64,000 bases of DNA from an archaeon GW2011_AR5 (lineage in GTDB: Archaea > Aenigmatarchaeota > Aenigmatarchaeia > GW2011-AR5), in contig JWKQ01000002.1 in the NCBI GenBank assembly GCA_000806115.1, positions 256,815 through 320,814 of the forward strand, in the 5' to 3' direction. The notes under the pieces are model-generated. The model saw only the letters and a list, made by a program, of their open reading frames with translations. It searched no databases and had not been told where the DNA came from. Both the position numbers and the translations under genes were made by a program. Positions 7,505-50,062 of the stretch are shown piece by piece (position 1 is the first letter of the stretch; every line of letters starts with the position of its first letter).

Positions 7505-7535
7505 TTGCGGTTCGTCTGAAGAAACAAAAACGAAA

Positions 7536-7568
7536 TTTTTTATTTTCTCTTCTTCTTCCTTATTTTTT
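7536..7568 (+). terminator. Oligo-T tract terminator after the S-layer gene
   Basis: TTTTTTATTTT and TATTTTTT runs lie 30-65 nt after the stop. Archaeal RNAP terminates at oligo-T. Confidence 0.5.
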
Positions 7569-7815
7569 AACTAACTAGACATAGGGACAGAATGTACAAT
7601 ATTATAAACTATTTTTGTAATGTATTTTCATTGCGCCAGAAAATTCTGCATTAAGGGCAAAATTTCGTCGGAAAATTTTATTTCTAGATGTAAAATCAGA
7701 AAAATATTTTAGTTGTGGCACCCTTGTAGCCACTTTGCGCCCAGATTGTCACTGTGTCGTCGCAATTTCACGTAGAACGAAAGTATAAATATAAGCTATA
7801 GGTAATTTATCTGTA

Positions 7816-8034
7816 ATGTCGGGGCAGAATGTGGTCGAGAAAAGAATCTTGACTTTATTGAGCAGGGAAATAATGTCTACTTCTCAGGTTGCGAAGAAAC
7901 TCAATATGCGCCGCGAGCTGACTGCGGGATATCTCGAGGCATTGAGGCATCAGGGCAAGCTTGAGAAGACGAAAGTGGGCAAGTCAAATATTTACCGGAC
8001 AATCGCCGCAATCGAAGGCGTCGACAGGAACTGA
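7816..8034 (+). CDS. Small winged-helix DNA-binding protein (72 aa)
   Basis: LLSREIMSTSQVAKKLNMRRELTAGYLEALRHQGKLEKTKVGKSNIY has an HTH-plus-wing pattern. TATA GTATAAATATAAG lies about 30 nt upstream of the ATG. Confidence 0.7.
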   Translation: MSGQNVVEKRILTLLSREIMSTSQVAKKLNMRRELTAGYLEALRHQGKLEKTKVGKSNIYRTIAAIEGVDRN

Positions 8035-8103
8035 ACTTGAAAATTATATGAAAATTATATATAGTGCATAAGGGCAGAATAATAAAAATCGGAGTGCAAC
8101 AAG

Positions 8104-11100
8104 ATGAACGGATTCATGAAGGGAATAATAAAGACGGGCGTGATATTCTCAGCAGTGTTTGTAGCGGCAATTGCTTTATTCTATGTTCTGCCTGTGTTTG
8201 CAGGTCCCGGAATCACGCTGACAAGGGAAAACCCTTCCCCAGCCAATAACACCAATGTCTCCACCGTAGGCCTTGCCAGAGGATACTTCTTCGTTAACAT
8301 CTCAATCAACGAGTCGCTTATATCACTGGCAAATCTGGAGGTCTACAACCTCAGCGATGCTGGCAGCCTATTCATGAACTTCACTATGACAAACAGCACT
8401 GATAACACGATTCTCAATTATACTTATTTCAATGTAACTGGCTTGTTCAACGGCACGTTCACATGGCGGGTGGTCGGCGTAAACACATCCTCACTGGGTG
8501 CCAACCAGACATTCGGCAACTTCACTGTGACGCTCGGCCAGATATACAACGCAGTCATCACAAATCCGACGAACAACACTAACACAGCAAACGACCTGAC
8601 GCCTGAAATACGTGTGAGCGCCAACAGCACATTCCTCACGAACATGTCCCTGACACTCTACACTAACAAGGCTGGAGTCATCCAGGCTGTCAGAAACCTT
8701 ACAATTTTAAACGGCACCGAAACAGCTTTCAACCTGACGCAGCTCACCGGCGGCACCTACAACATAATAGCTGAGGCCGGCAATGGCGCGGATTTCAAGG
8801 TAAATTCAACTGCTCTCACGATCGTTGTCACATACCTCGAGGCAAACGCGACTCTTGACGTTTCTAATGTGCGCGCTGGTGCAGAGCAGAATTATACTTT
8901 CACTGTAGCCAATAACGGCACAGACACAATAGACAGGATCAACATAACTTACGACGCCGGCTTCGAGGATCCTGTAGCCGGCGACATCGTATGCCCTATA
9001 ACGACAAACATTTGGAACCGTTCCGTTGATGCCACGAACAACATGGTATCGTGCATCATGCCTGACCGTGACGTTGACTCTGGCATAACCTCTGGCAACT
9101 CGAAGACAATTAAAGTGGAAAACTGGTCGGCGTCTAATGTCGCTGGCAACAAGACATTCTTGGTGGATGTCCGAGGGCTCAAGAACGGGAATTCCAGCGT
9201 AGTCGCTAACATGCCTGCTGTCGCCGTATTTGGAAACCTGACAATCACAGGCACCAGCCGCGCAGCGGCAGCCAACCAGACTGGCACGACGAACCTGACG
9301 ATGATTTCATTCAACTTCTCCGCGACAGGCGAGCAGATGAACATCACGCAGATAATACTTACGCGCAACGGCACTGTAACCGATGCGGACATAGTTGAAG
9401 TGAAGCTGTACAACAGCACGCGCGAGAATGTAGGCGCAGCTTACAATGCAACAGAGGATTTCGACATAATTGCCGTCAACTCAAGCGCGCCTTCAAACGG
9501 ACGCTACACGTTCAGCGGGCTAAATTTCCGTGTTAATTCAAGCCAGATTGTCATTGTTGTCGTGAATGTCTCCAGCAGCGCTACGGGCGGCAGGACGATG
9601 AACTTCAGCATCGAAGGAGCGGCTGATGTCACGAGCGCAGGCAACGAGTCGAAGCAGGCAATAACCGAGACATTCGCAAGCCAGCGCTCGACAAGCACCA
9701 CGCTCTATGGCACTGTTTCAGTTACAGGCGCCTCGCGCGCGCCGGCAACCTCTGCCATCGGGGCAGGCAACGTGACAGTCATATCATTCAACTTCACAAC
9801 GACAGGCGAAGCTGTCAACATCACGGGCCTGAACATAACCCTCAACGGCACCGGCCTGACTGCAGCCGATATAAAGCACATCGGCCTTTACAACAGCACA
9901 TCAGCTGACGCCGGAGTGCTGGATGGGAGCGGCGTGAATTATGACTTGATTCAGTGGAACATATCCGAGCCTGTCAAGCCGGGAGACGACACGACGCTCA
10001 GGTACAACTTCTCTAACATCGCATTCAATGTCAGTTCAGGCGCCACAAACGTATTGCTTGTAGTTGTCAATGTCTCAGGCAGCGCAACAGGAGGGCACAA
10101 ATTCAACGCCTCCATCGAGGGCGCAGGTGATATAATTTCAACAGGCGTAAGCTCAGGACAGTCTCTAGTCGAAACGCTTGCCACGATGCGATCGGATAAT
10201 TCAACAATATACGGCAATCTCTCCATAGTCGGCACGAGCCGCGTTTCATCGACGACACAGATAGGTTCGAAGAATGTGACAGTCATCTCGTTCAACTTCA
10301 CCGCAACAGGCGAGGACATGAACATAACAGGAATTAATATTACAATCAACGGCACGAACCTTGCCGTCAGCAACATCGACAGGGTTGCGCTGTACAACAG
10401 CACGCTGCCCAATGCAAATGTCTTCAACGGCACGGTGTCATACGACCTGATCGCATGGAACAACTCTGCGCCTGTGGTGACAGGGAGTTCAATGAGATAT
10501 AACTTCTCCAACCTTGGCAAGTTCAATGTTTCCAGCAGCGCAGTGAACACGCTGCTTGTAGTAATAAATCTCACTGACGAGGGCGTCGCAGGCAGGACAT
10601 TCAACGCCTCCATCGAGGGCGCAGCTGACGTGGTGACAAAAGGCGGAACATCCAATCTTGCAATAACAGAAACTATATCAGGCCAGCGCTCGACAAGCTC
10701 CACGATATATGGCAATGTCTCGGTGGTTGGGTCGAGCATCGCTCCCGCGGGTGCTGACGTGGGACAGATAGGTGTGGGCTTCCTGAAGCTGACGCTCAAC
10801 GCAACAGGCGAGGCAGTCAATATATCAAGCATCAACATAACCTCTAACAACACAAGGAACCAGGATGTGCTGAGAGTAAGACTGTTCGACGACCTGGGCG
10901 GCACGTCAACAGGAACCTACGAGCGGAATGCCGACCTTCCGGTAGCCGGAGCAACTGGCTCGTTCGGCGGCGACTCCAGCGGTTCTGTGCTGCTGACGCC
11001 GACAAACCCGATCAACATTTCTGTCAATTCACTGCATTATGTTTACGTTGTCTTCGACATCAACACCAGCGCCACAGCCGGGCTTGACAGGCTCGGTGCA

Positions 11101-14100
11101 AGCATCCAGAGTGTCACTGCAACAACTGCCCAGGGCAATGACAGCTATGTATCGGTGACGCCGCAGCTTACAACAGGCGATCCTGGCGCAGTTAATGTCG
11201 ACATCAGAAACCTGACAGGCACCGCTTCCGCCATCACAACAGGAACAGCTGTTGCACGCACGGGTGCTGGAACGCTGAACAACTTCACTGTGACAGTGAA
11301 TAACACAGCTACAGGTACCCTGAAAGATTCAATAGACGAAATTAGGATACTGTTCGGCGGCACGGGCTTTACGTTCGCAGATCAAGCGGGTAACGCAACC
11401 TGCCCGACCATAGCGTCTGTCCCGTGGAACAGGACTATAATATCTGCCAACATCATCGTCTGCAACGTAACAGATTCTGGCGGCAGACTGGCGGCAGACA
11501 CGAATACAACAATAAGCCTGGAAAACTTCACGGCATCCGGAACTGCAGGCATATATCAGCTTAATGTTTCTGTCAGGGGCGCCTTGGGCGGCGTGTTCAA
11601 CGTATCATCGAACCCGTCAATAAGTGTTTACGGAAACCTGACAGCCAAAGCTACCAACGGCGTCAACGCGACGACAGAGGTAGGCAAGAACAGGATAACA
11701 TTCTTCTACATTAACCTCTCAGCAAGCGGCGAGGCAATGAATGTCTCGGAAATACTTGTCACGTTCAATGGGACAGGGCTCGTGGCAGCTGACATCGCGT
11801 CAGTCGAGCTCTACAACAGCACTGACAAGAGCACGACTATTGTCAACGGCTCACAGACGCTCATAAGGACGAACGTCACGCCTTCGGCGCCTGACCTTAC
11901 TTACAACTTCTCGGGCCTCAACTTGTCTGTCCCGGCTGACGTTACCGGACAAATTGTGCTGGTTGTTGCGAACATATCAGGCAGCGCAACCGGCGGGCAT
12001 GTTGCGAATGCGACAGTTATCAACAATAACAACATGGTGACAATCGGCTCGCTGACAGGAATCAACGCAGCCGAGAACTTCACTACTCAGGTCAACTCGA
12101 CGAACACGACAATAATTGGCAATCTCTCCATAGTCGGCACGAGCCGCGTCTCATCGACAACGGCAATCGGCACTAACAACATCACAATAATATCGTTCAA
12201 CTTCACCGCAGCGGGCGAGGCCATGAACATCAGCGGAATAAACATAACAATAAATGGCAGCAGCATAACGGCAGCTGATATAGTCGGCGTTGCGCTGTAC
12301 AACAGCACGCTGCCCAATGCAAATGTCTTCAACGGCACGGTGTCATACGACCTGATCGCATGGAACAACTCTGCGCCTGTCAAGCCGGGCGACGACACGA
12401 CGCTCAGGTACAACTTCTCCAACCTTGGCAAGTTCAACGTGTCTGCCGGCGAGACAAATACACTGCTTGTTGTCATCAACCTGTCCAGCAGCGCAACCGG
12501 CGGGCGGGCATTCAACGCCTCCATAGAAGGCGCAGCTGACGTAGTAACGACAAGCGCCATATCAGACAAATCCATAACAGAGACGTTCGTTAGCCAGCGT
12601 TCCGCAACTTCGACAATTCTTGGCACGCTGTCGATAACAGGAACCAGCCGCGTCGCAACTTATACGCGTCTGGGCACGAACAACGTAACAATTATATCAT
12701 TCAACGTCTCCAGTTCTGGGGAAGCGATGAATATAACAGGCATCAACATAACCCTTAACGGCACACGTACTACAGCCGATATAGCCCGCGTAGGCATATA
12801 CAACAGTACTCTTCCGGACGCAGGAGTGTTCAACGGCACGGTGTCATACGACCTGATTGCCTGGAACAACTCCGAACCTGTCAATGGCAGATATAACTTC
12901 TCGAACATTGCATTCAATATAAGCTCAGGCGGCTCGAACACGCTTCTCGTTGTGGTGAATGTGTCAAGCAGCGCCATAGGCGGGCTTACATTCAACGCCT
13001 CCATAGAAGGCGCAGCTGACGTTGTAACGACAGGCGTGACATCGGGATCAACCATCGCAGAAACTGTCGCAACGCCGCGCTCCGATAGCTCCACACTCGT
13101 GTCGCTCATAGCGATTGGAACAAGCCGCGCTCCGGCTACGGCTATTGTCAACAAGACAAACATTACCTTGATATCATTCAATGTTTCCGCTCTGGGCGAA
13201 CAGATGAACATAAGCGGCATAAACATCACGATTAACGGGACGGTCAATGTGAGCGCCATAGCCAGCGTAGGCATATACAACAGCACTCTTCCGGATGCAG
13301 GAGTGTTCAACGGCACGGTGTCATACGACCTGATTGCCTGGAACAACTCCGAGCCTGTGGGTGGTGGAGGAAACACGCTCAGGTACAACTTCTCCAACCT
13401 TGGCAAGTTCAACGTTTCTGTTGGCAGCAATACCCTGCTTGTAGTTGTGAATCTCTCAGGCAACGCGGCAGGCGGCGCGACATTCAACGCCTCCATCGAG
13501 GGCGCAGCTGACATGGTAACGACCGGCGGCGTGTCTGGTTTGGACATCACCGAGACGCTTGCAACACAGCGTTCGTCAAGCACGACAATATTTGGCAATC
13601 TTTCAGTTACCGCAACGGATTCGCTGGCTTCATGGACGCGCCTCGGCTCGACTAATGTTACAGTTCTCATACTGAATTTCACCGCGACAGGCGAACAGAT
13701 GAATGTGTCCGAAATTATACTTACAAGGAACGGGACCGTTACGGATGCGAACATAATCGAAGTCAAGCTCTACAGCACGGACAGACCTGACATCGCGAAC
13801 TTCAATGGAAGCCAGACGCCTCTTGTGACTAACCTCACGCCTTCTGCCAACAGGTACAACTTCTCCAACATCAATCTGTCGGTGCCGGCTGGAGCTACGG
13901 GCAAAATAGTCCTCGTGGTTGTCAACGTGTCAGGAACGAACACGGGAGCGGGCGGAAGCACGTTCAACTTCTCAGTTGAATCTGCATCTGACATAGTGTC
14001 GAGCGGCAACACGTCATATCAATCAATAGCAGAAACCCTAACAGGCAGCATAAGGTCTAATACGTCAACACTAGTGGGCATAAATGTCACCGCCACCGCA

Positions 14101-24661: not shown

Positions 24662-25309
24662 CTACCCCTTCATTATAGCTTTCCCGATAATGTACGAGGC
24701 AACTTTTAAGCTGTCTTTCACGGGCATCTGGGAGCCTATGTCATATCTAACGCTTATCGGGACTTCCTTTATGCGCAGCCCTTTCCTCGCCGCCTTGATT
24801 ATCATCTCTGCTTCAATTTCATAGCGGCGTTTCTTGAGTCCAAGGGAAAGGAAATCGCTTTTCCTGATTGCCCTGAACCCGCAAAGCGCGTCATTCAGCT
24901 TCCTTCCTGCGGCTGCGGATATCACTGCCCTGGCAAAATTATTCGACACTATTCTTTGAGACGGTATGTCACGGATGTTCCTTGAGCCGACGGCAAGGTC
25001 GCATTTTCTCAATGCCGATATCATATTTGGTATCTCGCGCGCATCCAGCTGGCCGTCTGAGTCTATGAAGACTATATTTTTGCCGCTCGCAATCTTTGCA
25101 CCGGCGCGGCAGGCATAACCCTTTCCGTAATTTTTTGACAGCCGTATGCAGTTGCAGCCCAGGCTTTTTGCAACCTCAAGCGTTCTGTCTTTTGAGCCGT
25201 CGTCAACCACGATTACTTCGCAGCTTGAAGGGATGTTACTGATCACGCGGGCTATGTTCTTTTCCTCGTTGTAAGCCGGCAGTATTACAGATGTTGTCAT
25301 GTTAGCCAC
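24662..25309 (-). CDS. GT2 glycosyltransferase, dolichyl-phosphate hexose synthase-like (soluble/peripheral)
   Basis: SVILPAYNEEKNI...VIVVDDGSKDRT...KNYGKGYA...VFIDSDGQ matches the DPM1/GtrB-like pattern. Its start overlaps the PHP gene's 3' end by 8 nt. Confidence 0.85.
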   Translation of the reverse strand: MANMTTSVILPAYNEEKNIARVISNIPSSCEVIVVDDGSKDRTLEVAKSLGCNCIRLSKNYGKGYACRAGAKIASGKNIVFIDSDGQLDAREIPNMISALRKCDLAVGSRNIRDIPSQRIVSNNFARAVISAAAGRKLNDALCGFRAIRKSDFLSLGLKKRRYEIEAEMIIKAARKGLRIKEVPISVRYDIGSQMPVKDSLKVASYIIGKAIMKG

Positions 25310-25964
25310 CCATGAGTCTCAGTTTTCTTTTTATTTGTCTTTTCATTTTTGCGGTAAGCAGCGGAAGCGTGCTGGTCTGCTTGTCAGGAAGAATTACCTT
25401 CCCTTTCTTTATGGATTTCAATACATCGTCCACGCTTTTCGCGTCAATCAAGCAGGCAAATTTTCCGACGTCCTGGAGGCGATGGGCATCGCTGCCTGCC
25501 ACTGCGGGTTTTTTCGCCTGCCGCGCCAGCACAGCCGCCTTTTTGTTGCCGGATGGAAGCGTGTTGCCGTTGAGTATCTCGATTGCGTCGAATTTCTTTG
25601 CGCTCCTGACATCGTTGAACCCGTTCCTGCTGAATCCGCCGAAAGGATGGACGTTGATTATAATGCCTCCCCTTGCCCGGGCGTCGTCTATAAGCTCGTC
25701 AAGCGCGCAGAAAGCTTTCACTTTTAATTCCTCGACGCCCAGAGCCATTACATGAGCGGTACCTTCAGGATGCCTGCACGTCACTTCTATCCCCGGAATC
25801 AGCAGGCATTTTGGCTTCAGCTTTCTTGCCGCCTGATATCCGGAAAAAGTGTTGTGGTCGGTTATTGCCACGCCTCCAAGCTCGCGCTCCGTCTTTGCAA
25901 TCAGCTGCTTCACGGTCGGTATGCCGTCCGAATGGTTTGTATGGCAGTGCAGTTCGATTAGCAT
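25302..25964 (-). CDS. PHP-domain metal-dependent phosphoesterase
   Basis: MLIELHCHTNHSDGIPT...VAITDHNT...GSDAH carries the PHP His/Asp motifs. Confidence 0.85.
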   Translation of the reverse strand: MLIELHCHTNHSDGIPTVKQLIAKTERELGGVAITDHNTFSGYQAARKLKPKCLLIPGIEVTCRHPEGTAHVMALGVEELKVKAFCALDELIDDARARGGIIINVHPFGGFSRNGFNDVRSAKKFDAIEILNGNTLPSGNKKAAVLARQAKKPAVAGSDAHRLQDVGKFACLIDAKSVDDVLKSIKKGKVILPDKQTSTLPLLTAKMKRQIKRKLRLMGG

Positions 25965-25997
25965 AAAAATAATTGATTGATTAATTTAATAACACAA

Positions 25998-26037
25998 TGC
26001 TCACGCCAGTGAGCCACCTTGTAATATGTTTCTTTTC
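25998..26037 (-). promoter_or_regulatory. Promoter/initiator module copy A (upstream of the PHP gene)
   Basis: Minus strand reads GGAAAAGAAACATATTACAAGGTGGCTCAC-TGGC-GTGAGC: purine-rich BRE-like element, TATA-like element, GCTCAC and a 6-bp hairpin. Related copies lie at 38306-38352 and 48306-48347. Confidence 0.45.
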
Positions 26038-26046
26038 CGCAAGCGC

Positions 26047-28471: not shown

Positions 28472-28581
28472 ATCCTTTTCTTCGTCAGAAACCTGAAGGA
28501 TTGTGTTTCTGGCGACTCAGGAAAGCTTTGCTTTCCTCGAGTTGGGGTAAGACTTAGACCTTTCTTTTCGGAAAAGAAAGG
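28472..28581 (+). other. Hairpin series in the Zn-ribbon/ef1b spacer
   Basis: ATCCTT-(18)-AAGGAT at 28472-28501, with inner TTTCT-tcgtc-AGAAA. GGAAAGC-ttt-GCTTTCC at 28520-28536. CCTTTCTTTTC-g-GAAAAGAAAGG at 28559-28581, ending 7 nt before the ef1b ATG. Confidence 0.5.
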
Positions 28582-29965: not shown

Positions 29966-30097
29966 GACCAACTTAATGTCCAGATATTACACAAGTTGGT
30001 CACATACGCTGAAGAACAAAGTTCTTCGGCGTGCCAGAAAGCTTCGCTTTCTGAGCATAGTGAACCAAGTTATAATATCCAGATTCTTTACTTGGTT
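29966..30097 (+). other. Four-hairpin 5' region of the wHTH gene
   Basis: GACCAACTT-(18)-AAGTTGGTC at 29966-30001. GAAGAAC-aaa-GTTCTTC at 30011-30027. CAGAAAGC-ttc-GCTTTCTG at 30035-30053. AACCAAGT-(19)-ACTTGGTT at 30063-30097. A TATA-like ACTTTTATAG lies at about 29953-29962. Confidence 0.5.
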
Positions 30098-32018: not shown

Positions 32019-32328
32019 GGAAAAATCACTTATCTAATTATGGATTATAGTGGTATATATAGTTTTTTGAAATTTAGGGCGGAATTTTGTTTTCTCTTGA
32101 TTGGGAAATTCTTTATTTAGTTCGTGCGCGAAATAATATTGAAGACAAAGCATACAGGAACACCAGTTCTTTTCTCGCAGAAGCCTTAGAGCTTCTGGAG
32201 ACTCAGGTTGGACTTTGTTCAATCTCGAGTTGGAATACCTAGCTTTTTCTTCCAAGACGTTGTGAAGCACGCTTCACGACGCACATGAAGCTTCGCTTCA
32301 TGATGAGAGGATAGGTAAGGGATCGATA

Positions 32329-38358: not shown

Positions 38359-38431
38359 AGCATTTCGTTCGAAATGCTGCACAGCAAGAGCTTTGCTCTT
38401 GCTCGTGAGGGCTTTCTTTTTTAAAAGAAAG
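38359..38431 (-). other. Three consecutive perfect hairpins after the mini-ORFs
   Basis: AGCATTTCG-tt-CGAAATGCT at 38359-38378. AGCAAGAGC-ttt-GCTCTTGCT at 38383-38403. CTTTCTTTT-tt-AAAAGAAAG at 38412-38431. Confidence 0.55.
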
Positions 38432-38434
38432 GGC

Positions 38435-38554
38435 TCAACGGAACCATTTCAGCACAGGATCAATATTCGGCACGACGCCTGCAAGCATAGATATCACCAC
38501 GGCAAAAACCAGGAGAGTAAGGACTATCGCCACAACGACGTATTCTATTCTCAT
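38435..38554 (-). CDS. 39-aa hydrophobic mini-protein, Flp-pilin-like N-terminus without leader
   Basis: Hand translation gives MRIEYVVVAIVLTLLVFAVVISMLAGVVPNIDPVLKWFR. Its ATG lies 1 nt after the stop of the preceding mini-ORF (TAAaATG). Confidence 0.5.
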   Translation of the reverse strand: MRIEYVVVAIVLTLLVFAVVISMLAGVVPNIDPVLKWFR

Positions 38555-38555
38555 T

Positions 38556-38690
38556 TTATCTCAGCACTCCGAGCAGAAGGTCTATGTTATTCTGTATTCC
38601 GCCGTTAAAATGTATGTAGATAAGCAGGCTTATTCCCAAGCCCAGAAGGCCTATCATGATGAACACCACTTCGGTTATTGTCAGTTCCAT
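38556..38690 (-). CDS. 44-aa hydrophobic mini-protein
   Basis: Hand translation gives MELTITEVVFIMIGLLGLGISLLIYIHFNGGIQNNIDLLLGVLR. GGAGAAG lies 9 nt upstream of the ATG. Confidence 0.55.
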   Translation of the reverse strand: MELTITEVVFIMIGLLGLGISLLIYIHFNGGIQNNIDLLLGVLR

Positions 38691-38715: not shown

Positions 38716-39627
38716 CTATGCACACCCCGTAATAGTGGGAGTACAGCCGAGGTTTCTTGCGGCTTCGCACTGCCCGCACGCGCCCCTGCCGAACTTGCTG
38801 CACTCAGTAAACTGTTCGCATACCAAGCAGGAGTTTGCCCATGGCCAGTACCAAGGCCCGCCCCAGTAGCAGCTTGCAGTTGATGTGCAGTCGCTTTCAG
38901 CGGCATGCCTTCTGCAGGTGTCAATTCCACATTCCGCGTCCCTGTCTACCGGCACGTCGAACGATGAAAGATAAGCGTCCGGGTGGCTCTCGAGCATCTG
39001 CCTCAGAGTGGAGCTGTCGATGTCGTCCGTCAATCCGGGTTTGTCCAGCCATGTTGTAAAATGGAATACCTCCCTGTCCCGCAGACTTCCAATCTGGCGC
39101 ATGTCGAATTTCAGCTTCAGGTCTTGCGGACAAATGAATTCGCCGCTCGGTGCGGCACATGATATTATTTCCTGTGTGTTTCCGTTCGTATCGCTGTAAC
39201 TTCCCAGTATGAGTTTGCTCTGCGTGCCGGAGATGCCCATGTAGTCCATTATTACGACGAAGTCAAGGCGGTCACTTTGGGAGCCGGGATACGCCCTGTA
39301 GAAGAATTTTAAGCCGTCAAGTATTACCAGCTGCGCATTAGGCGTGCAGTCCAGTTTTGTGAACTTTTCCAGCCCGCCTTCGCCGGGATTGTCGTTGGTG
39401 ATGTAGAGCTTCCCAGGCTCAAATACCTGCCCGATCTGGTTGAATATCTTCCAGGGCGTTACGCCCGCAACTATCGCAATGCCTATCGCAATAACGAGTA
39501 CCATGACTATTATGTAGAACCATGCGCCCATCGTTATCTGGAAGCCCATAGATTTATTGTGTCCGGCTGAAATAAAAAGAAAAATAGCTCTGTAGAAAAC
39601 CTGTGAGAAAAGCAGCAGGAGCATCAC
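38716..39627 (-). CDS. Secreted/anchored protein with very Cys-rich C-terminus (303 aa as drawn)
   Basis: TM FYIIVMVLVIAIGIAIVAG. The C-terminus is CGIDTCRRHAAESDCTSTASCYWGGPWYWPWANSCLVCEQFTECSKFGRGACGQCEAARNLGCTPTITGC. The first 7 codons coincide with an inverted-repeat arm, so the true start may be MGFQ (39549) or MGAW (39531). Confidence 0.75.
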   Translation of the reverse strand: MMLLLLFSQVFYRAIFLFISAGHNKSMGFQITMGAWFYIIVMVLVIAIGIAIVAGVTPWKIFNQIGQVFEPGKLYITNDNPGEGGLEKFTKLDCTPNAQLVILDGLKFFYRAYPGSQSDRLDFVVIMDYMGISGTQSKLILGSYSDTNGNTQEIISCAAPSGEFICPQDLKLKFDMRQIGSLRDREVFHFTTWLDKPGLTDDIDSSTLRQMLESHPDAYLSSFDVPVDRDAECGIDTCRRHAAESDCTSTASCYWGGPWYWPWANSCLVCEQFTECSKFGRGACGQCEAARNLGCTPTITGCA

Positions 39628-39754
39628 CGCATTGAATTTTGTTCAATGCGTGCAGGTGGAACTTGTTCCACCTTGCATTGTGTACCCACAATGCTGCTAG
39701 TAACTAGAGGGTATCGTGCATTCACGATACCCTCCCTGCTGCTTTTCCTTGAGC
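39600..39754. other. Inverted-repeat-flanked cassette of four perfect hairpins (MITE-like or structured-RNA element)
   Basis: Hairpins lie at 39629-39649, 39654-39673, 39675-39694 and 39707-39734 (the last has a 12-bp stem). The flanks share CCTGCTGCTTTTC in inverted orientation (39609-39621 vs 39734-39746). Confidence 0.5.
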
Positions 39755-39776
39755 ATTTCTACAGAGCAAGAAAAAT

Positions 39777-40751
39777 TTACGCGAAGCAGTTCTTGTCAGG
39801 CCTGTCTATGCAGCCCGCATTGAGTTCGAATTTGCCGCCGAGCCTGTCCTCGCGGCATAATCCAAGCAGCACATTGAAGTCGCTCGATTGGCGGGTGCAT
39901 TCGTTGTCTTTCCAGAAGCTCAGGAGAACCGTCTCTCCCACGTTCTCCCAAGGCTCGCCGCAGAAGCTGCCTCCGAGGGTGCTGCACCCGTAATCAATTT
40001 CTGCATTCACGGCGTTTGCCGAACAGTCGGGCTCCGCATTCAGCATTATTGTGGCGGTTCCTCCGCACATATCTATGATTTGCTTCCATTCGCTCTCCGT
40101 GCTTCCTGGCGTGCCGTTAAGGCGGCTGCTGGTTTTTGTTATGCAGGGACCTCTCAGGGTGAACGTTGCCTTGCAGTCGTACTGGTTCACGGGATTAAAA
40201 TCAACGGCGTAATCGGCGTTGAAGTAATCGTCGACGTTTACTGCGGCGATTATTGCGCTCCTGCCGCTCCTGACAAGGACAGGCATCCTGTAACTGAACC
40301 TGTCGCTGTAGAATGCGTTGTCATATGTTTGTATCGGCATTATTTCGCTTATTATGTCTGCCTTTATGTTGGGTTCTATGATTTCATCCTCGACGCCTAT
40401 CGTGAAGCTGTCGCTGTCGCCTGTCGGGCTGCTGAAGGTCGCCCTGATACTTTGTCCCTTGAAGCTTATTATTGCGATGATATTCACGGGCGCCGTCCGT
40501 TTTCCAGTGACAGTTATGCGCGGCGCCGTTCTTATCTCGTATAAATAGTCGCCAACCCTTGAGCGGGGCGTGACATCAGCCTGTATCGGAGAATTGCTTA
40601 CGCCCGCAAATGCCAGCACAAGCGGCTGCGAGAGGTTTTCCTGTATGTTCTGCGGCAGTTTTGTCCCGATAAATCTTTCGTTGGCATACAGGACTATCGA
40701 GAACGCTATTATACCGAAAATTATGTACGCGATTATGTCGTGCTCTTCCAT
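39777..40751 (-). CDS. Secreted/anchored pilus-locus protein (about 324 aa)
   Basis: N-terminal anchor IIAYIIFGIIAFSIVLYA, a large beta-rich ectodomain and C-terminal Cys pairs. The ATG at 40751 shares 1 nt with the upstream stop (TGATG), and GGTGA lies 4 nt upstream. The track start is a GTG at 40763. Confidence 0.8.
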   Translation of the reverse strand: MEEHDIIAYIIFGIIAFSIVLYANERFIGTKLPQNIQENLSQPLVLAFAGVSNSPIQADVTPRSRVGDYLYEIRTAPRITVTGKRTAPVNIIAIISFKGQSIRATFSSPTGDSDSFTIGVEDEIIEPNIKADIISEIMPIQTYDNAFYSDRFSYRMPVLVRSGRSAIIAAVNVDDYFNADYAVDFNPVNQYDCKATFTLRGPCITKTSSRLNGTPGSTESEWKQIIDMCGGTATIMLNAEPDCSANAVNAEIDYGCSTLGGSFCGEPWENVGETVLLSFWKDNECTRQSSDFNVLLGLCREDRLGGKFELNAGCIDRPDKNCFA

Positions 40752-41389: not shown

Positions 41390-43372
41390 TTACCCTCTCA
41401 CAAGGCTGCTTGTTATCAGCGGCTCAAACATCACAAGCGTGACAAGCATGCATACTGTGAAGACCACGAAACCGACAATCAGCGATGTGCCAGTGATGTT
41501 CTGCCTGCCTATGGGATCCTCTCCGGACTCAATCGAATTTATGAACATGGCAAGTATGAAGGCAGTTTCAATCAGGTAAACTCCGACAATAAGTATGAAC
41601 TCGAACGGCGTAATCTTTACGTTGCCCAGCGAGGTTAGGAAAGGCACACTTACGCTGCCCAGGTTGCTCGTCTGTTCTGATATCTGCCTCAGTATCTTGA
41701 TGATTATCACAGCCAGCGTGACAACAATGCCCGATATGAGCGGAGAGAGAAAGTAAGACTGGAATTTTAGTGATGAGAGGGTGTCATTGAGCTGCTCTTT
41801 CACGTCTTCCTGGGTGTCGTGCAGCCCTTTCAGGTAGCGCGAGACGGAAAGCATCGCAACCGACGCGGTTCTTACGCCTTTTTTTGTCGATTCCACCACG
41901 GTTCTCATGATGGACTTGATGAGCTTGGAGGGATAGAATCTTATTGCCCCGTACTCCTTGTCGAAAAATGCCTGTCCGAACGTGAAGCCCAGCATCTTCA
42001 TGTTCTTGAGCGCCCTGCCAAACAAGTCCTTTATCTTCAGGTTTTGTATCCTTTCCATCGAGTGTTCCAGAGAAAGCTCTACAGGCACGCCTCCTGATAT
42101 CTGGTTTCCAAGCTGGAAAAGAGCCTCAGCAAATTCGCCTTCTATTTCCCTGGTTTTGCGGCGGATGGCGAGCCGCTGTTTTGACAGCATGATGTAGTAG
42201 ACCCCGAAGCCGAAGGAGATGCCCATCAGGATTACGATTGCGGGAAATATACCTTCGAAATCCGTGGAAGCGAAATACTCATTCACCGTCATAAAAGCCC
42301 CGAGGGCGATTATCATCACCCCTACAAGCAGCCCGACATGCCAAGCCTTGTAGAATTTTTTTCCCATTGCGAATTTGCCGGGCGGCGGAACGTCGGGATT
42401 CTCGGTAATATCTATCTTGCTGAAGGTGGCGGGCCTGGTCTCTAGTATTCCTGATATCACGAAATACAGCACGAGGGGAAGTATTATGTCATATCCGACG
42501 AAAAGCACCTCGGACGACACGCCGAGGAATGCCGCGAGTATGGGGAAAAGCACGAGTCCCATGACAGGGAGCACTATTCCGAGCGCGTGCACAACCATCA
42601 CCGGCATCTTGAGGTCCTGGTTGAAGTGCTTCGCCTGTTCCCTGCTTCCTTCGAGCACGATGTCAACCGCCTCGTCCAGCAGCACGATACGCTTGTCCCC
42701 GACCTGCTTCAGCGACGTTATCATCAATTCAACCGCCTCGACGAACGGCCTGTTCTTCGCCCAGCGGCTCGTGAAATCAACCAGCGCCTCCTGCATTGTC
42801 AGGTAATTTCCGATTTCCACGTCCCAAAGCAGTTTTTTCATCTCGTAGCCCATCGAGCCGCCGAGATTTTCCGCGGCGAATTTCACCGCAGCCTCGAGGT
42901 TAGGCACGTTTCTCATGTACATCGCTATGTAGAGAACAAGCGTGACTATTTCCGAGCCCGCGTCCGATTCGTATTTGCGCCGCAGACGCTTCGGGTAGGT
43001 GTGCACGTAAAAAGTGAAGAAGAGGGAAAGCATCAGCAGCATTAATCCGTAGCCGAAGGAAATCCCGGGAAGCTTCAAAGCGGTGAGAGCCATCAGGATT
43101 ATGGTCGGGATGACGGTTGCGAGAAGGAAAAATATTGTTACGGAAGTCGTCCCGCCGGGCGTCACTTTCAGGTGCGCGAACTCAATGGTTTCCTGTATCT
43201 TCGCGCGCGACTTTTTGTCAGGCTCGATGTGAATTATTCTCTCTGAAAAGCGGCACGCCTTCTCGTAGAGCGACTTGGGCATTGAGGCGAAGGCTTCTTC
43301 TTCCTGGTAAAGCCGGTATTCGCGCGATATGAGGTTGCGTATCTGTTCTTCCCGCTTTCTCTTCGAAGGCAT
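41390..43372 (-). CDS. Polytopic type IV pilus/archaellum platform protein (T2SS-F / FlaJ / TadC-like)
   Basis: 660 aa with two repeats of cytoplasmic helical domain plus TM triplets. Its position next to the secretion ATPase fits a platform protein. Assigned by architecture, not by a specific motif. Confidence 0.8.
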   Translation of the reverse strand: MPSKRKREEQIRNLISREYRLYQEEEAFASMPKSLYEKACRFSERIIHIEPDKKSRAKIQETIEFAHLKVTPGGTTSVTIFFLLATVIPTIILMALTALKLPGISFGYGLMLLMLSLFFTFYVHTYPKRLRRKYESDAGSEIVTLVLYIAMYMRNVPNLEAAVKFAAENLGGSMGYEMKKLLWDVEIGNYLTMQEALVDFTSRWAKNRPFVEAVELMITSLKQVGDKRIVLLDEAVDIVLEGSREQAKHFNQDLKMPVMVVHALGIVLPVMGLVLFPILAAFLGVSSEVLFVGYDIILPLVLYFVISGILETRPATFSKIDITENPDVPPPGKFAMGKKFYKAWHVGLLVGVMIIALGAFMTVNEYFASTDFEGIFPAIVILMGISFGFGVYYIMLSKQRLAIRRKTREIEGEFAEALFQLGNQISGGVPVELSLEHSMERIQNLKIKDLFGRALKNMKMLGFTFGQAFFDKEYGAIRFYPSKLIKSIMRTVVESTKKGVRTASVAMLSVSRYLKGLHDTQEDVKEQLNDTLSSLKFQSYFLSPLISGIVVTLAVIIIKILRQISEQTSNLGSVSVPFLTSLGNVKITPFEFILIVGVYLIETAFILAMFINSIESGEDPIGRQNITGTSLIVGFVVFTVCMLVTLVMFEPLITSSLVRG

Positions 43373-44295: not shown

Positions 44296-46518
44296 TCAGT
44301 AGCTCTTCCGAAGCCACTGAAGCCATCTGTCGTATATGAGCGTGCTGTCCAATGCGCCTAATTCTTCTTTCACTTCGCTGCTTATGATATGGAAATGGGA
44401 ATTCGACGCTATTATGTTGTTCGCTTCGAGCAAGTCCAGACGGTTGTTGACGTTCGCGTAATCGACAATCGTCTGCATAATCTTGCCGCGCAGCTTTATG
44501 TTGTTCCACACGGCGTCCCAGTTGCCCTTCCACTCGCGCACGCGCTGGGCTATGTCGTTCAGCACAGCCGACTCTCCCATGAGCAGTGTCTTGCTTGGCT
44601 TTAGCACATCGTCCTTCGCCGAATAGTCAAGAAGGTTGACGAACCCGCCTTCTTCAGCCGGATCATTCTTCCAGTGCTTGCGGACCTCCGTCAGCTCGAC
44701 GCATCTTCTGAAAGATTTCAGACCGTCCGGCGATTTCAGCATGTTCGCAATGAGTATCATGTCAGTCGCCTTGAAGCTCGTGGGCGGCACGCCAAGGTCG
44801 TTCACAACCCTGTCGAACACGCCATAGGCAGAGTCGCCGTGGATTGTTCCCATGACTACGTTGGCTAATGCGCCGATTCGCATGGCTTCGTACAGCGCGA
44901 GCGCTTCCCTGCTTCTCACTTCGCCGATGACAAGAGCGGAATCGCCCAGGCGCAGCGCGGTTCTCAGCGCCTCTTCGGCGGGCAGTTCGGTGTCAACGTT
45001 GGTTATTACGCTTCGCGATTTCATGCTCTGGATATTATATCCAAGGTCGCGCAACTGATGGATCGGCAGTTCCAGTGTGTCTTCCACTGAAATAATTCTC
45101 AGCTTCGGCATTATCTGCACCATCAGCGCGCCGAGCATGGAACTCTTGCCTGATGATCTCGTGCCTGCTATAAGCATCGTCCTCGAGCCGTCAATCAGGA
45201 ACCACAGCAAGCCTGCGGAGAAAGGATCTAGCATCTTGTTGTTTATGAAAAGCGGGAGCGTCCATGGCTTGTCGCGATGCCGGCGGAAAGCGAAGCCGAG
45301 CCCGTCGGGCGACAGCGTTCGCGTAATCGCCGCGACTCTTGCCCGCCCCCCGGGCACTTCTATTTCAGTGTCAAGCACCGGGTTCGCCTCATCCAGCGGA
45401 CGCCCCGACTTTAGCCTGAATCTGGTCGCCCATGATTCCCCGTCTTCCCGGCTCGGCACGATGTTCGTTTCGCATTCCTGGTATATGCCGTGGAACAGGT
45501 AGACGGGTGACGTGCCGATCGGCGAGTTTATCTCGATGTCCTGCACGTTCTCGTCCTGGAGGATCAGGTCAAGTATTCCAAGACCGGCAGTGTATCTTGC
45601 AAGGATATTGGCAAGTTCTTCCAGACGCTTCTCCTGTATGTCGTGGTCCGCCGCCAGGTCACGCAGCATGTCTAAGCCGATTCTGAAAAGATTTTCACGT
45701 ATCCTTTCCGGCTCCTCGAGTTCGCTCTCTCTCGGTTCGTGCCTGCCAAGGTATCGCCGCGCCGTGTCGAGCATGTTGTATTCGATTTCATTGAGCCTGA
45801 ACTCGGGAGGGATGATGTGATAAAGCCGCCTCACCTGTCCCGGTATTGCATAGATTTCTATCTCAGTTTCCTCAACATTGTACCTTTCAAGCAGTTCGGC
45901 GTTCGCCGGCGGCAGCGATATGTATCGCGTGTAAATGAAATTGGGCCTGATAGTCGGGTGGAATATGCGCCTGTAGAGCGACCTGTCCTTGTGTTCGGTG
46001 ATGTTCGGCTTGGCCAGTTGAATGAGGCGGCAGTTGTCGAGCACAGCCGCTATCGGAAGCAGGGAATTGTTCAGGTAGTGGTTGTAGCACTGCTGCTTCA
46101 GTCCGGTTTCCCTCTCGGATTTTACTTTTATTCTCCTGATTTCCCGCGTGAGCGACCTGTAAGCTTCTATGGGGTCAAAACGGAGGTCGTTGAGAAGCCG
46201 CTGGAGAAAACGGTACCTTTCCTGCGAGTCGTCTTCGCAGCCGGCGATGACAACGTTCTTCAAAGAAATGAGCCTGTCCTTCATCAGGCGCTCGATTGCA
46301 AGCGCGATTTCCAGCAGCATCTTCGACTCTGTGAAGTCATATTCATACTCCCGCACGCCGGCGAAGACGATACGCACGACCTTCTTCAGTTCCATCAGTT
46401 TGTCGATGGTAGTTGCCATGCATGCGCTGTAGTCCTCGATGGAGTCGCCGTACAGCCCTCCGACGCAGTTGATGCGCATTTTTTGCGTCTCCTCGTCGTA
46501 GTCGTATTCGTACACCAT
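44296..46518 (-). CDS. Type IV pilus/secretion ATPase (VirB11/FlaI/PilB-TadA superfamily) with a long N-terminal extension
   Basis: Walker A IAGTRSSGKSSMLGAL, Walker B/Asp box ALVIGEVRSREA and His box VMGTIHGDSAYGV. At 740 aa it is about 200 aa longer than typical FlaI. Confidence 0.92.
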   Translation of the reverse strand: MVYEYDYDEETQKMRINCVGGLYGDSIEDYSACMATTIDKLMELKKVVRIVFAGVREYEYDFTESKMLLEIALAIERLMKDRLISLKNVVIAGCEDDSQERYRFLQRLLNDLRFDPIEAYRSLTREIRRIKVKSERETGLKQQCYNHYLNNSLLPIAAVLDNCRLIQLAKPNITEHKDRSLYRRIFHPTIRPNFIYTRYISLPPANAELLERYNVEETEIEIYAIPGQVRRLYHIIPPEFRLNEIEYNMLDTARRYLGRHEPRESELEEPERIRENLFRIGLDMLRDLAADHDIQEKRLEELANILARYTAGLGILDLILQDENVQDIEINSPIGTSPVYLFHGIYQECETNIVPSREDGESWATRFRLKSGRPLDEANPVLDTEIEVPGGRARVAAITRTLSPDGLGFAFRRHRDKPWTLPLFINNKMLDPFSAGLLWFLIDGSRTMLIAGTRSSGKSSMLGALMVQIMPKLRIISVEDTLELPIHQLRDLGYNIQSMKSRSVITNVDTELPAEEALRTALRLGDSALVIGEVRSREALALYEAMRIGALANVVMGTIHGDSAYGVFDRVVNDLGVPPTSFKATDMILIANMLKSPDGLKSFRRCVELTEVRKHWKNDPAEEGGFVNLLDYSAKDDVLKPSKTLLMGESAVLNDIAQRVREWKGNWDAVWNNIKLRGKIMQTIVDYANVNNRLDLLEANNIIASNSHFHIISSEVKEELGALDSTLIYDRWLQWLRKSY

Positions 46519-46559: not shown

Positions 46560-46725
46560 TTCGCATTCCACTGCTTTCAAGCAGTGGTTGAGAGGCAGTG
46601 AATGCGAATCATTGCAAAACTTGCTTTGCAATACAGGTAAACCGAAGGTTTACCATGTGTTCAATGACACACCAATTTCAACAAGCCACCGCATTTATGC
46701 GGTGGTCATTGACAAGTGTGCAATG
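46560..46725. other. Orphan array of six hairpins, with one mutually exclusive alternative helix (candidate structured ncRNA/regulatory element)
   Basis: Stems are listed in the findings. The array lies between, and is not needed by, the two divergent TATA boxes at about 46535-46548 and about 46765-46775. Confidence 0.5.
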
Positions 46726-50000: not shown

Positions 50001-50062
50001 CAAAGAACAAAGTTCTTTGGCATAACTGAAGCAATTTAATTATTCTATTGGGTTGCTTCAGT
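50001..50062 (-). other. Two hairpins in the 5' region of 49458..49958, one shared with the 30-kb wHTH leader
   Basis: CAAAGAAC-aaa-GTTCTTTG at 50001-50019 and ACTGAAGCAA-(18)-TTGCTTCAGT at 50025-50062. On the minus strand, TATA CGTATATATAC lies just upstream (about 50063-50072). Confidence 0.5.

Follow-up and report, generated by a model that had tools for sequence, protein, structure and literature searches.

A probable miniature inverted-repeat element of an ISH1-like IS5-family insertion sequence in a pilus-like operon of Candidatus Aenigmatarchaeota

The minus-strand genes investigated here form a type-IV-pilus-like cluster in Candidatus Aenigmatarchaeota (DPANN). Besides a T2SSE ATPase and a T2SSF-like membrane protein, the cluster encodes several proteins with N-terminal transmembrane helices. 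Two of its genes, neither of which has a match in Pfam, are separated by an odd gap of 230 nt that contains four hairpins. Does this block belong to the operon, as a structured RNA would, or has it been inserted there? The analysis covered a 64-kb stretch of DNA, referred to below as the window. From its termini, the duplication that flanks it and its relatives elsewhere, we conclude that the block is very probably a miniature inverted-repeat element (MITE) of an ISH1-like IS5-family insertion sequence (IS), and its presence would explain the gap.

Boundaries and structure of the block

The coordinates of the features are given in Table 1. The MITE consists of GCTCTG...CAGAGC with one variable nucleotide at each terminus, and on the plus strand it runs from an arm that resembles the left end of the IS to one that resembles the right end. 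The arms are 33 nt each and are 82% complementary. In the left arm the outer 12 nt, GCTCTGTAGAAA, are followed by a stretch of 8 nt that is not complementary and then by the inner 13 nt, GAAAAGCAGCAGG; the outer and inner segments both pair perfectly with the opposite arm. An exact direct repeat of 8 bp, AGAAAAAT, lies one nucleotide beyond each arm. The initial annotation had suggested an inserted unit of ~155 bp bracketed by inverted repeats of ~13-20 bp. While the repeats and the insertion both stand, the arms had been under-called, the unit extends to 183 bp and the direct repeat had been missed. The four hairpins are present where they had been placed and all of their stems are perfect.

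Table 1. Coordinates of the element, its parts and the neighbouring genes in the window
Feature	Position	Strand	Basis or remark
MITE, 183 bp, without ORF	39586..39768	+	Termini, duplication, family comparison
Left terminal inverted repeat	39587..39619	+	Resembles left (5') end of full-length IS copies
Right terminal inverted repeat	39735..39767	+	Resembles right end of full-length IS
Hairpin 1, CGCATTGAA-ttttg-TTCAATGCG, 9 bp	39628..39650		Perfect stem
Hairpin 2, AGGTGGAAC-tt-GTTCCACCT, 9 bp	39654..39673		Perfect stem
Hairpin 3, GCATTGTG-tacc-CACAATGC, 8 bp	39675..39694		Perfect stem
Hairpin 4, GAGGGTATCGTG-catt-CACGATACCCTC, 12 bp	39707..39734		Perfect stem
Target-site duplication, left copy, AGAAAAAT on + strand	39578..39585		Same 8-mer in both flanks
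Target-site duplication, right copy, AGAAAAAT	39769..39776		Abuts stop codon of upstream gene
Upstream gene of pilus-like operon, 324 aa	39777..40751	-	N-terminal transmembrane helix, Cys-rich C-terminus
Downstream gene, corrected extent, 277 aa, start ATG at 39549	38716..39549	-	Homologue alignment
Putative TATA-like box of downstream gene, TTTTATTT	39570..39577	-	20 nt before ATG
T2SSE ATPase	44296-46518	-	
T2SSF-like membrane protein	41390-43372	-	Weak; Pfam score under family cut-off

The nucleotides between the arms and the duplication are A and A in this element, which are not complementary, and they vary among the MITEs of the family; in the IS copies, unlike the MITEs, they are always T...A. 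A duplication of 9 bp (AAGAAAAAT) was considered and rejected because, measured from the ends, its two copies are out of register with each other. Preference was given to a model of 8 bp and one terminal nucleotide, since this fits 31 of the 56 family members among the matches listed.

When folded as a single strand, either strand of the block forms a closing helix with four hairpins. The predicted energies are -99.8 kcal/mol for the plus strand (z = -12.7) and -103.2 kcal/mol for the minus strand (z = -14.0), and for neither strand were any of 200 dinucleotide shuffles as stable. Folds of this stability on both strands speak for a native structured RNA of the pilus operon, which might be a cis-regulatory domain, a small RNA gene or an element involved in processing or stability, and in which the arms would form the closing helix. 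However, Rfam gave nothing on the element (39500-39850) even at E<=1, and its single match in the window at the gathering threshold was a tRNA-Thr at 1232-1304. No tRNA or tmRNA was found at the site of the element by ARAGORN. A scan for sigma-70 promoters and intrinsic terminators was set aside as uninformative in an archaeon.

Empty site, dispersed copies and the autonomous partner

The closest orthologous locus, L133, where the neighbouring protein is 84% identical, lacks the element at exactly this site. In the orientation of the genes the window reads TAA-ATTTTTCT-[T GCTCTG...CAGAGC T]-ATTTTTCT-TTTTATTTCAGCCGGACACAATAAATCT-ATG, and L133 reads TGA-ATTTTTCT-TTTTATTT. Since the 8-mer is present once and the element not at all, L133 represents a precise empty site. 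The element is also missing from L136 (65% protein identity), in which the spacer is 34 nt, and from L139 (59% protein identity), in which it is 64 nt.

Other copies were found in many unrelated contexts. When GTDB genomes were searched with the arm pattern, matches were obtained in three Aenigmatarchaeota MAGs and in four bacterial genomes; the bacterial matches (L007, L008, L011 and L013) were discarded as chance, ~5 being expected for that pattern, and there were no matches in viral contigs. A generalised arm pattern recovered the same termini in at least 119 contigs of JGI/ENA metagenomes. Elements were delimited by pairing the 12-nt tips. Among the matches listed there are 33 short elements of 85-306 nt, with a modal length of 130 nt and further classes near 160, 180-188 and 212 nt, 23 long elements of 976-1084 nt, and 75 solo ends, most of which are 100-145 nt from the end of a contig. 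This position of the solo ends points to a repeat that breaks assemblies, both of DPANN and of other archaeal MAGs. Two pairings in L059 (893 and 1246 nt), which are without duplications, may be mis-paired. L012, which has a right end and one hairpin only and a candidate left arm within a coding region, was treated as truncated or degenerate. In the window itself no second copy was detected in a search with the 12-mer tip allowing up to 2 mismatches, so that the element is single-copy there.

Target-site duplications had been proposed as a test of mobility. Each element was taken to reach one nucleotide beyond the GCTCTG...CAGAGC core at either end, and the adjacent 8-mers were compared. Among the matches listed the duplication is perfect in 21 of the 33 short and 10 of the 23 long elements, including that of the window, and all 31 perfect duplications differ in sequence; in a control in which both flanks were shifted outward by 2-10 nt, at most 6 of the 8 positions matched. 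A good example is L009, a relative of 131 nt in an unrelated context, which has arms of 34 nt, two 12-bp hairpins with perfect stems, of which one is the homologue of the window's hairpin 4, and an 8-bp direct repeat, AATGTAAG, one nucleotide beyond each arm.

A single ORF, of up to 340 aa, takes up nearly the whole length of the long elements. It matches PF01609 (DDE_Tnp_1) at 8e-19 and the NCBIfam equivalog NF033579, 'IS5 family transposase', for which it scores 155.1 and 170.5 bits where the cut-off is 140 bits. The C-terminus of the transposase (...FYR/K) is encoded by the right terminal repeat of the IS. The ORF, which lacks a stop codon inside the IS, continues past the right end and stops in the flank, 5 to >38 nt beyond it. 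The left arm of the window MITE resembles the left end of the IS (e.g. GCTCTGTAGAAACCCTGTGAAAAGCG) and its right arm resembles the right end (GCTCTGTAGAAATCCTCGATGAAGAGC), as expected of an internal-deletion derivative. No similarity to a transposase was detected across the window by tblastn with three transposases of the family (all E>=0.1).

Among annotated archaeal transposases the nearest are entries named simply 'IS5 family transposase', to which the transposase has no more than 25-32% identity. It has hundreds of metagenomic relatives, one of which is labelled Thermoplasmatota, so the IS family extends beyond DPANN, and the high-GC copies of the IS may have other archaea as hosts. An annotated IS5-family IS on the plasmid pMETHO01 of Methanomethylovorans hollandica (NC_019972, ~261.67-262.67 kb) has the same termini, GCTCTGTAGAAAACCT...TTTCTACAAAGC, and a transposase that is 32.5% identical over 79% of the query. 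That copy differs from the window MITE in being a full-length autonomous IS from a cultured methanogen, and has no clean 8-bp duplication there.

Members of the ISH1 subgroup of IS5 are 900-1150 bp long, with 8-bp direct repeats and one ORF (PMC6352166), and ISH1 itself has the 8-bp duplication AGCCGCCA (PMC7002104). With its length of 976-1084 bp, one DDE ORF and an 8-bp duplication the partner IS resembles ISH1 of Halobacterium salinarum and ISTth7 of Thermus; its placement in the subgroup is based on size, the single ORF and the 8-bp duplication rather than on phylogeny. The ends of the ISH1 group are written '-GC' in the ISfinder tables. This notation would fit the arrangement found here, in which a variable first nucleotide is followed by GC.

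It would seem, then, that the element is a 183-bp deletion derivative that has kept ~27-33 nt from each end of an archaeal IS5-family IS, and that this parent would have been ISH1-like, of ~1.0-1.08 kb, with one DDE transposase ORF and an 8-bp target duplication. As the MITE has no transposase of its own, its insertion was presumably carried out by a transposase acting in trans, which would recognise the invariant 12-13-nt termini and cut the two strands of the target 8 bp apart. The duplicated AGAAAAAT would have arisen when the staggered cuts were repaired. The target was a spacer of 36 nt in the type-IV-pilus-like operon, where the element directly follows the upstream gene's stop codon and directly precedes the TATA-like box of the gene downstream.

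The suggestion that the block was MITE-like is borne out by the terminal repeats, the duplication, the dispersed copies and the empty orthologous site, and at the sequence level the element answers fully to the description of a prokaryotic MITE in PMC10969869. Known MITEs such as SM of Sulfolobus, MITEHsal of Halobacterium and QMITE2 of Coxiella, the last pictured in PMC10969869, are likewise small, without an ORF and with terminal inverted repeats and direct repeats. Further features in common with prokaryotic MITEs are the AT-rich intergenic target, the presence of multiple copies, the very stable predicted stem-loop and the ends shared with an autonomous IS. High densities of MITEs have been reported from DPANN genomes (PMC11602168). 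The present element differs from known MITEs in belonging to a new sequence family, from Aenigmatarchaeota (DPANN) MAGs and from freshwater and groundwater metagenomes, and in having an unusually modular core with 2 to 4 or more perfect palindromes, which shows heavy covariation from copy to copy, in contrast to 12-nt tips that never change. Together with its partner it defines a MITE/IS5 family not catalogued before, whose termini are GCTCTGTAGAAA and whose target duplication is 8 bp long.

Anatomy and covariation of the palindromic core

In the basic form of the family, of 130 nt, a 12-bp tip helix that does not vary is followed by an asymmetric bulge, then by an inner helix starting AAAAGC and by two 12-bp hairpins, A and B, spaced by AGCTA or AGTAACTA. 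Hairpin 4 of the window corresponds to hairpin B and is conserved in L009, L060, L099, L076 and others. Hairpin 3 is a remnant of hairpin A, as can be seen by comparison with L123, which has AGCATCATTGTG-tacc-CACAATGATGCT. Hairpins 1 and 2 form a module of 51 nt within hairpin A that is absent from the basic form. The four hairpins represent the normal core of the family, two 12-bp hairpins of which one has been expanded by the two-hairpin module. The same four-hairpin arrangement is found in L022, L078, L080 and L130, which with the window element make up a subfamily in which each member is at a different insertion site, and all four carry homologues of hairpin 2 with compensatory changes.

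In an alignment of 16 copies of the 130-nt form the tip helix is invariant, while the inner arm helix and the internal hairpins covary strongly between copies, with double compensatory changes in 32 of the 50 predicted pairs. In the four-hairpin subfamily double changes are seen in 28 of the 67 predicted pairs. The interior is found in both orientations relative to the arms (L060 as against L109 and L123), suggesting that inversion has taken place across the inner repeat.

Many compensatory changes in the stems of related sequences could again be taken to favour a native RNA of the operon, and a single-copy element with compensatory substitutions had been put forward as a sign of a functional RNA. 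Such changes are indeed abundant, but they occur in a multi-copy mobile family. The stems of the hairpins contain 808 Watson-Crick and 19 G.T pairs and the two strands fold equally well, which suggests that palindromes are maintained in the DNA rather than that one RNA strand is under selection. In addition, the block is missing from all three orthologous operons (protein identities of 84%, 65% and 59%), among the matches listed it recurs in dozens of unrelated places with a separate 8-bp duplication at each, and its ends are those of a transposase-encoding IS. A native RNA is therefore highly implausible, and the idea that the arms close one RNA domain finds no support.

For the MITE, the covariation of the internal stems exceeds what a decaying selfish element would need, and leaves room for a structural role or for a mechanism that corrects palindromes. 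The predicted transposase-binding tips, frozen as they are against a covarying core, would make the family a useful test case for the maintenance of palindromes in mobile DNA.

In being dispersed between genes, also within operons, and in folding strongly as mRNA the family is similar to bacterial REP/BIME and Correia-type palindromic repeats. A REP is a single imperfect palindrome that depends on a RAYT (IS200/IS605-type) enzyme for its mobility and has neither terminal inverted repeats nor duplications; the window MITE differs from this in its DDE-type termini and 8-bp duplication.

Hairpin-GTRC-hairpin arrays also occur free-standing between genes of the window, at 38359-38431 and 46568-46705, as well as in L123 and L133. 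The pair of hairpins in L133 is recognisably similar to a pair in the window, over a short length.

Part of the core might have a separate origin, if the hairpins at 39628-39673 came from a REP-like family of hairpin arrays and were nested in a two-hairpin MITE. This would account for the window element being the 130-nt form with the 51-nt module inside hairpin A, and for similar arrays being free-standing in the window, L123 and L133. However, four other four-hairpin MITEs have the same architecture, so that the module may have been acquired once and then inherited, and in the free arrays, to which the similarity is short, no termini, duplications or dedicated enzyme have been identified. Such nesting would seem unlikely. 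More generally, the palindromes of the MITEs and the free arrays, which are found in many intergenic regions of the genome, could together make up a second, REP-like layer of DNA hairpins in DPANN archaea that are mobile or under active maintenance. Template-switch correction or a structure-specific enzyme would then keep the hairpins perfect, they would be able to nest in MITEs, and they might serve the host as terminators or insulators between genes; we regard this as improbable.

The element within the pilus-like operon

The listed ORF of the downstream gene, 38716..39627, takes its first 13-14 codons from the left arm of the MITE. Homologues of the protein are 270-278 aa long and all start at the residue equivalent to position 27 of this ORF, with Met27 as the first aligned and an invariant column. 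The 26 additional N-terminal codons are therefore spurious. That the start lies further downstream had been surmised in the initial annotation, and the false extension can now be removed from the annotation of this gene.

At a distance of 20-22 nt ahead of the ATG, the window, L136 and L139 share the conserved motif TTTATTT-N7-9-ACAATA. L133 has it too, but there an insert of 171 nt separates it from the ATG; this insert is rich in hairpins, with no clear terminal repeats and no clear duplication. From its conservation and position the motif is likely to be the TATA box of a promoter with a short leader or none. The MITE lies directly 5' of the motif in the window. The upstream gene has been left intact, and the duplication restores the sequence upstream of the TATA-like box. 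With both genes and this sequence intact, the insertion was probably near-neutral and the neighbouring genes would be unharmed.

The MITE could nevertheless have been co-opted. In the minus-strand transcript the stem-loop followed by UAUUUUUCUUUUUAUUU might act as a terminator, insulator or 3' stabiliser for the upstream gene, which would uncouple the expression of the two pilus genes. T-runs do follow the structure directly in the direction of transcription, the transcripts of MITEs form stable stem-loops that have been proposed as terminators (PMC10969869), and the element is identical in all seven contigs of the population. However, L133 has this T-rich sequence at its empty site, without the MITE, so that no new signal need have arisen, and the identity between contigs may reflect no more than a recent insertion in one clonal population. 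Co-option at this site we consider quite improbable. The contigs in question are six ENA metagenome contigs and a GTDB MAG contig, JAGVVU010000063 (RIFCSPLOWO2_01_FULL_48_10), which has 82-100% DNA identity to the locus over the aligned segments and is identical to the window over 351 nt around the element.

At a second locus, L099 is ~98% identical to positions 24831-25969 of the window, and in a variant intergenic region it carries a 130-nt member of the family that the window does not have. In this lineage, or in its nearest relatives, the family thus has more than one copy or is polymorphic, and presence or absence of its members could possibly be used as a strain marker in populations of Aenigmatarchaeota.

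Full-length copies of the insertion sequence

The full-length IS elements that share termini with the MITE of the window have no in-element stop codon for their transposase ORF (examples are listed in the table). The right terminal repeat is translated in the transposase frame, giving ...FYR/K-A, and the ORF ends 5 to >38 nt into the flanking DNA, so that the C-terminal tail differs at each insertion site. Contig L127 carries two such copies, at 7255-8328 and 12981-14054, separated by 4.6 kb. As the outer 8-mers match, GCGCCAGA to the left of the first copy being the same as that to the right of the second, the sequence suggests that the pair is a composite transposon of ~6.8 kb, inserted as a single unit. 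Identical termini, GCTCTGTAGAAAACCT...TTTCTACAAAGC, are found in an annotated IS5-family element of the Methanomethylovorans hollandica plasmid pMETHO01, and the family is therefore present in a cultured methanogen too.

Interior orientation and strain variation in the 130-nt MITEs

The interior of the 130-nt MITEs comprises two hairpins and the spacer AGTAACTA. Judged against the left and right arms, which can be told apart, the interior is found in both orientations, which implies that it would have been inverted through recombination across the inner inverted repeat. Another MITE of this length and family lies on L099, a contig ~98% identical to the window, where together with additional sequence it makes up 559 nt (L099:67-625) in place of the window's 75-nt intergenic stretch 25970-26044. 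From the sequence comparison this difference is a structural variant at the strain level, beside the gene at 24831-25969.

Promoter-like motif and small ORFs

The motif TTTATTT-N7-9-ACAATA is kept 20-22 nt 5' of the ATG of the pilus-operon gene downstream of the MITE, among orthologues sharing 59-84% identity. The motif probably serves as an internal archaeal promoter, with a leaderless mRNA or one with a very short leader. Directly 3' of this gene, the corrected 277-aa ORF, gene callers place two tiny ORFs of 44 and 39 aa, whose position is kept in the orthologous loci L133, L136 and L139; their products could serve this Tad-like system as small, pilin-like subunits. A three-hairpin array comes after them.

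Coordinates of the mobile elements, hairpins, motifs and small ORFs
Feature	Location	Strand
130-nt MITE, one interior orientation	L060:5042-5171	
130-nt MITE, opposite to L060	L109:1651-1780	
130-nt MITE, opposite to L060	L123:2005-2134	
Full-length IS	L131:760-1839	
Full-length IS	L127:7255-8328	
Full-length IS	L074:4090-5160	
IS5-family IS, pMETHO01	L140 (NC_019972.1 261256-263223), about 416-1414	
Promoter-like motif	window 39550-39577	minus
Promoter-like motif	L136:2966-3000	
Promoter-like motif	L139:2970-3000	
Two tiny ORFs	window 38435-38690	minus
Two tiny ORFs, counterpart	L001:12062-12317	
Hairpin array	window 38359-38431	
Hairpin array	window 46568-46705	
Hairpin array	window 28519-28581	
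Single hairpin	window 30035-30053	
Single hairpin	window 32284-32302	
Single hairpin	window 50001-50019	
Hairpin array	L123:1140-1260	

Free-standing hairpins

Perfect hairpins (stem of at least 8 bp, loop of 2-7 nt) number 22 in the window, against a shuffle mean of 5.1 and maximum of 9. Those outside the MITE form arrays of palindromes with 8-10-bp stems and 2-3-nt loops, 30-190 nt 5' of gene starts, with frequent apexes ..AAGC-TTY-GCTT.. or ..GAAC-AAA-GTTC.. and GTRC spacers. They are similar to the two extra internal hairpins of the window MITE. Such palindromes may constitute a REP-like class of repeats in their own right, or have a regulatory role.

At L133, where the MITE site is empty, the orthologous operon holds a different, hairpin-rich 171-nt insert (L133:2830-3000), which separates the conserved promoter-like motif from the ATG that starts the downstream gene. 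Neither terminal repeats nor a duplication were clear for this insert. Among its hairpins is the pair AGAAAGAAC-AAA-GTTCTTTCT GTAC GCATTGAC-GAAT-GTCAATGC, to which hairpins 2 and 1 in the window's MITE are similar.
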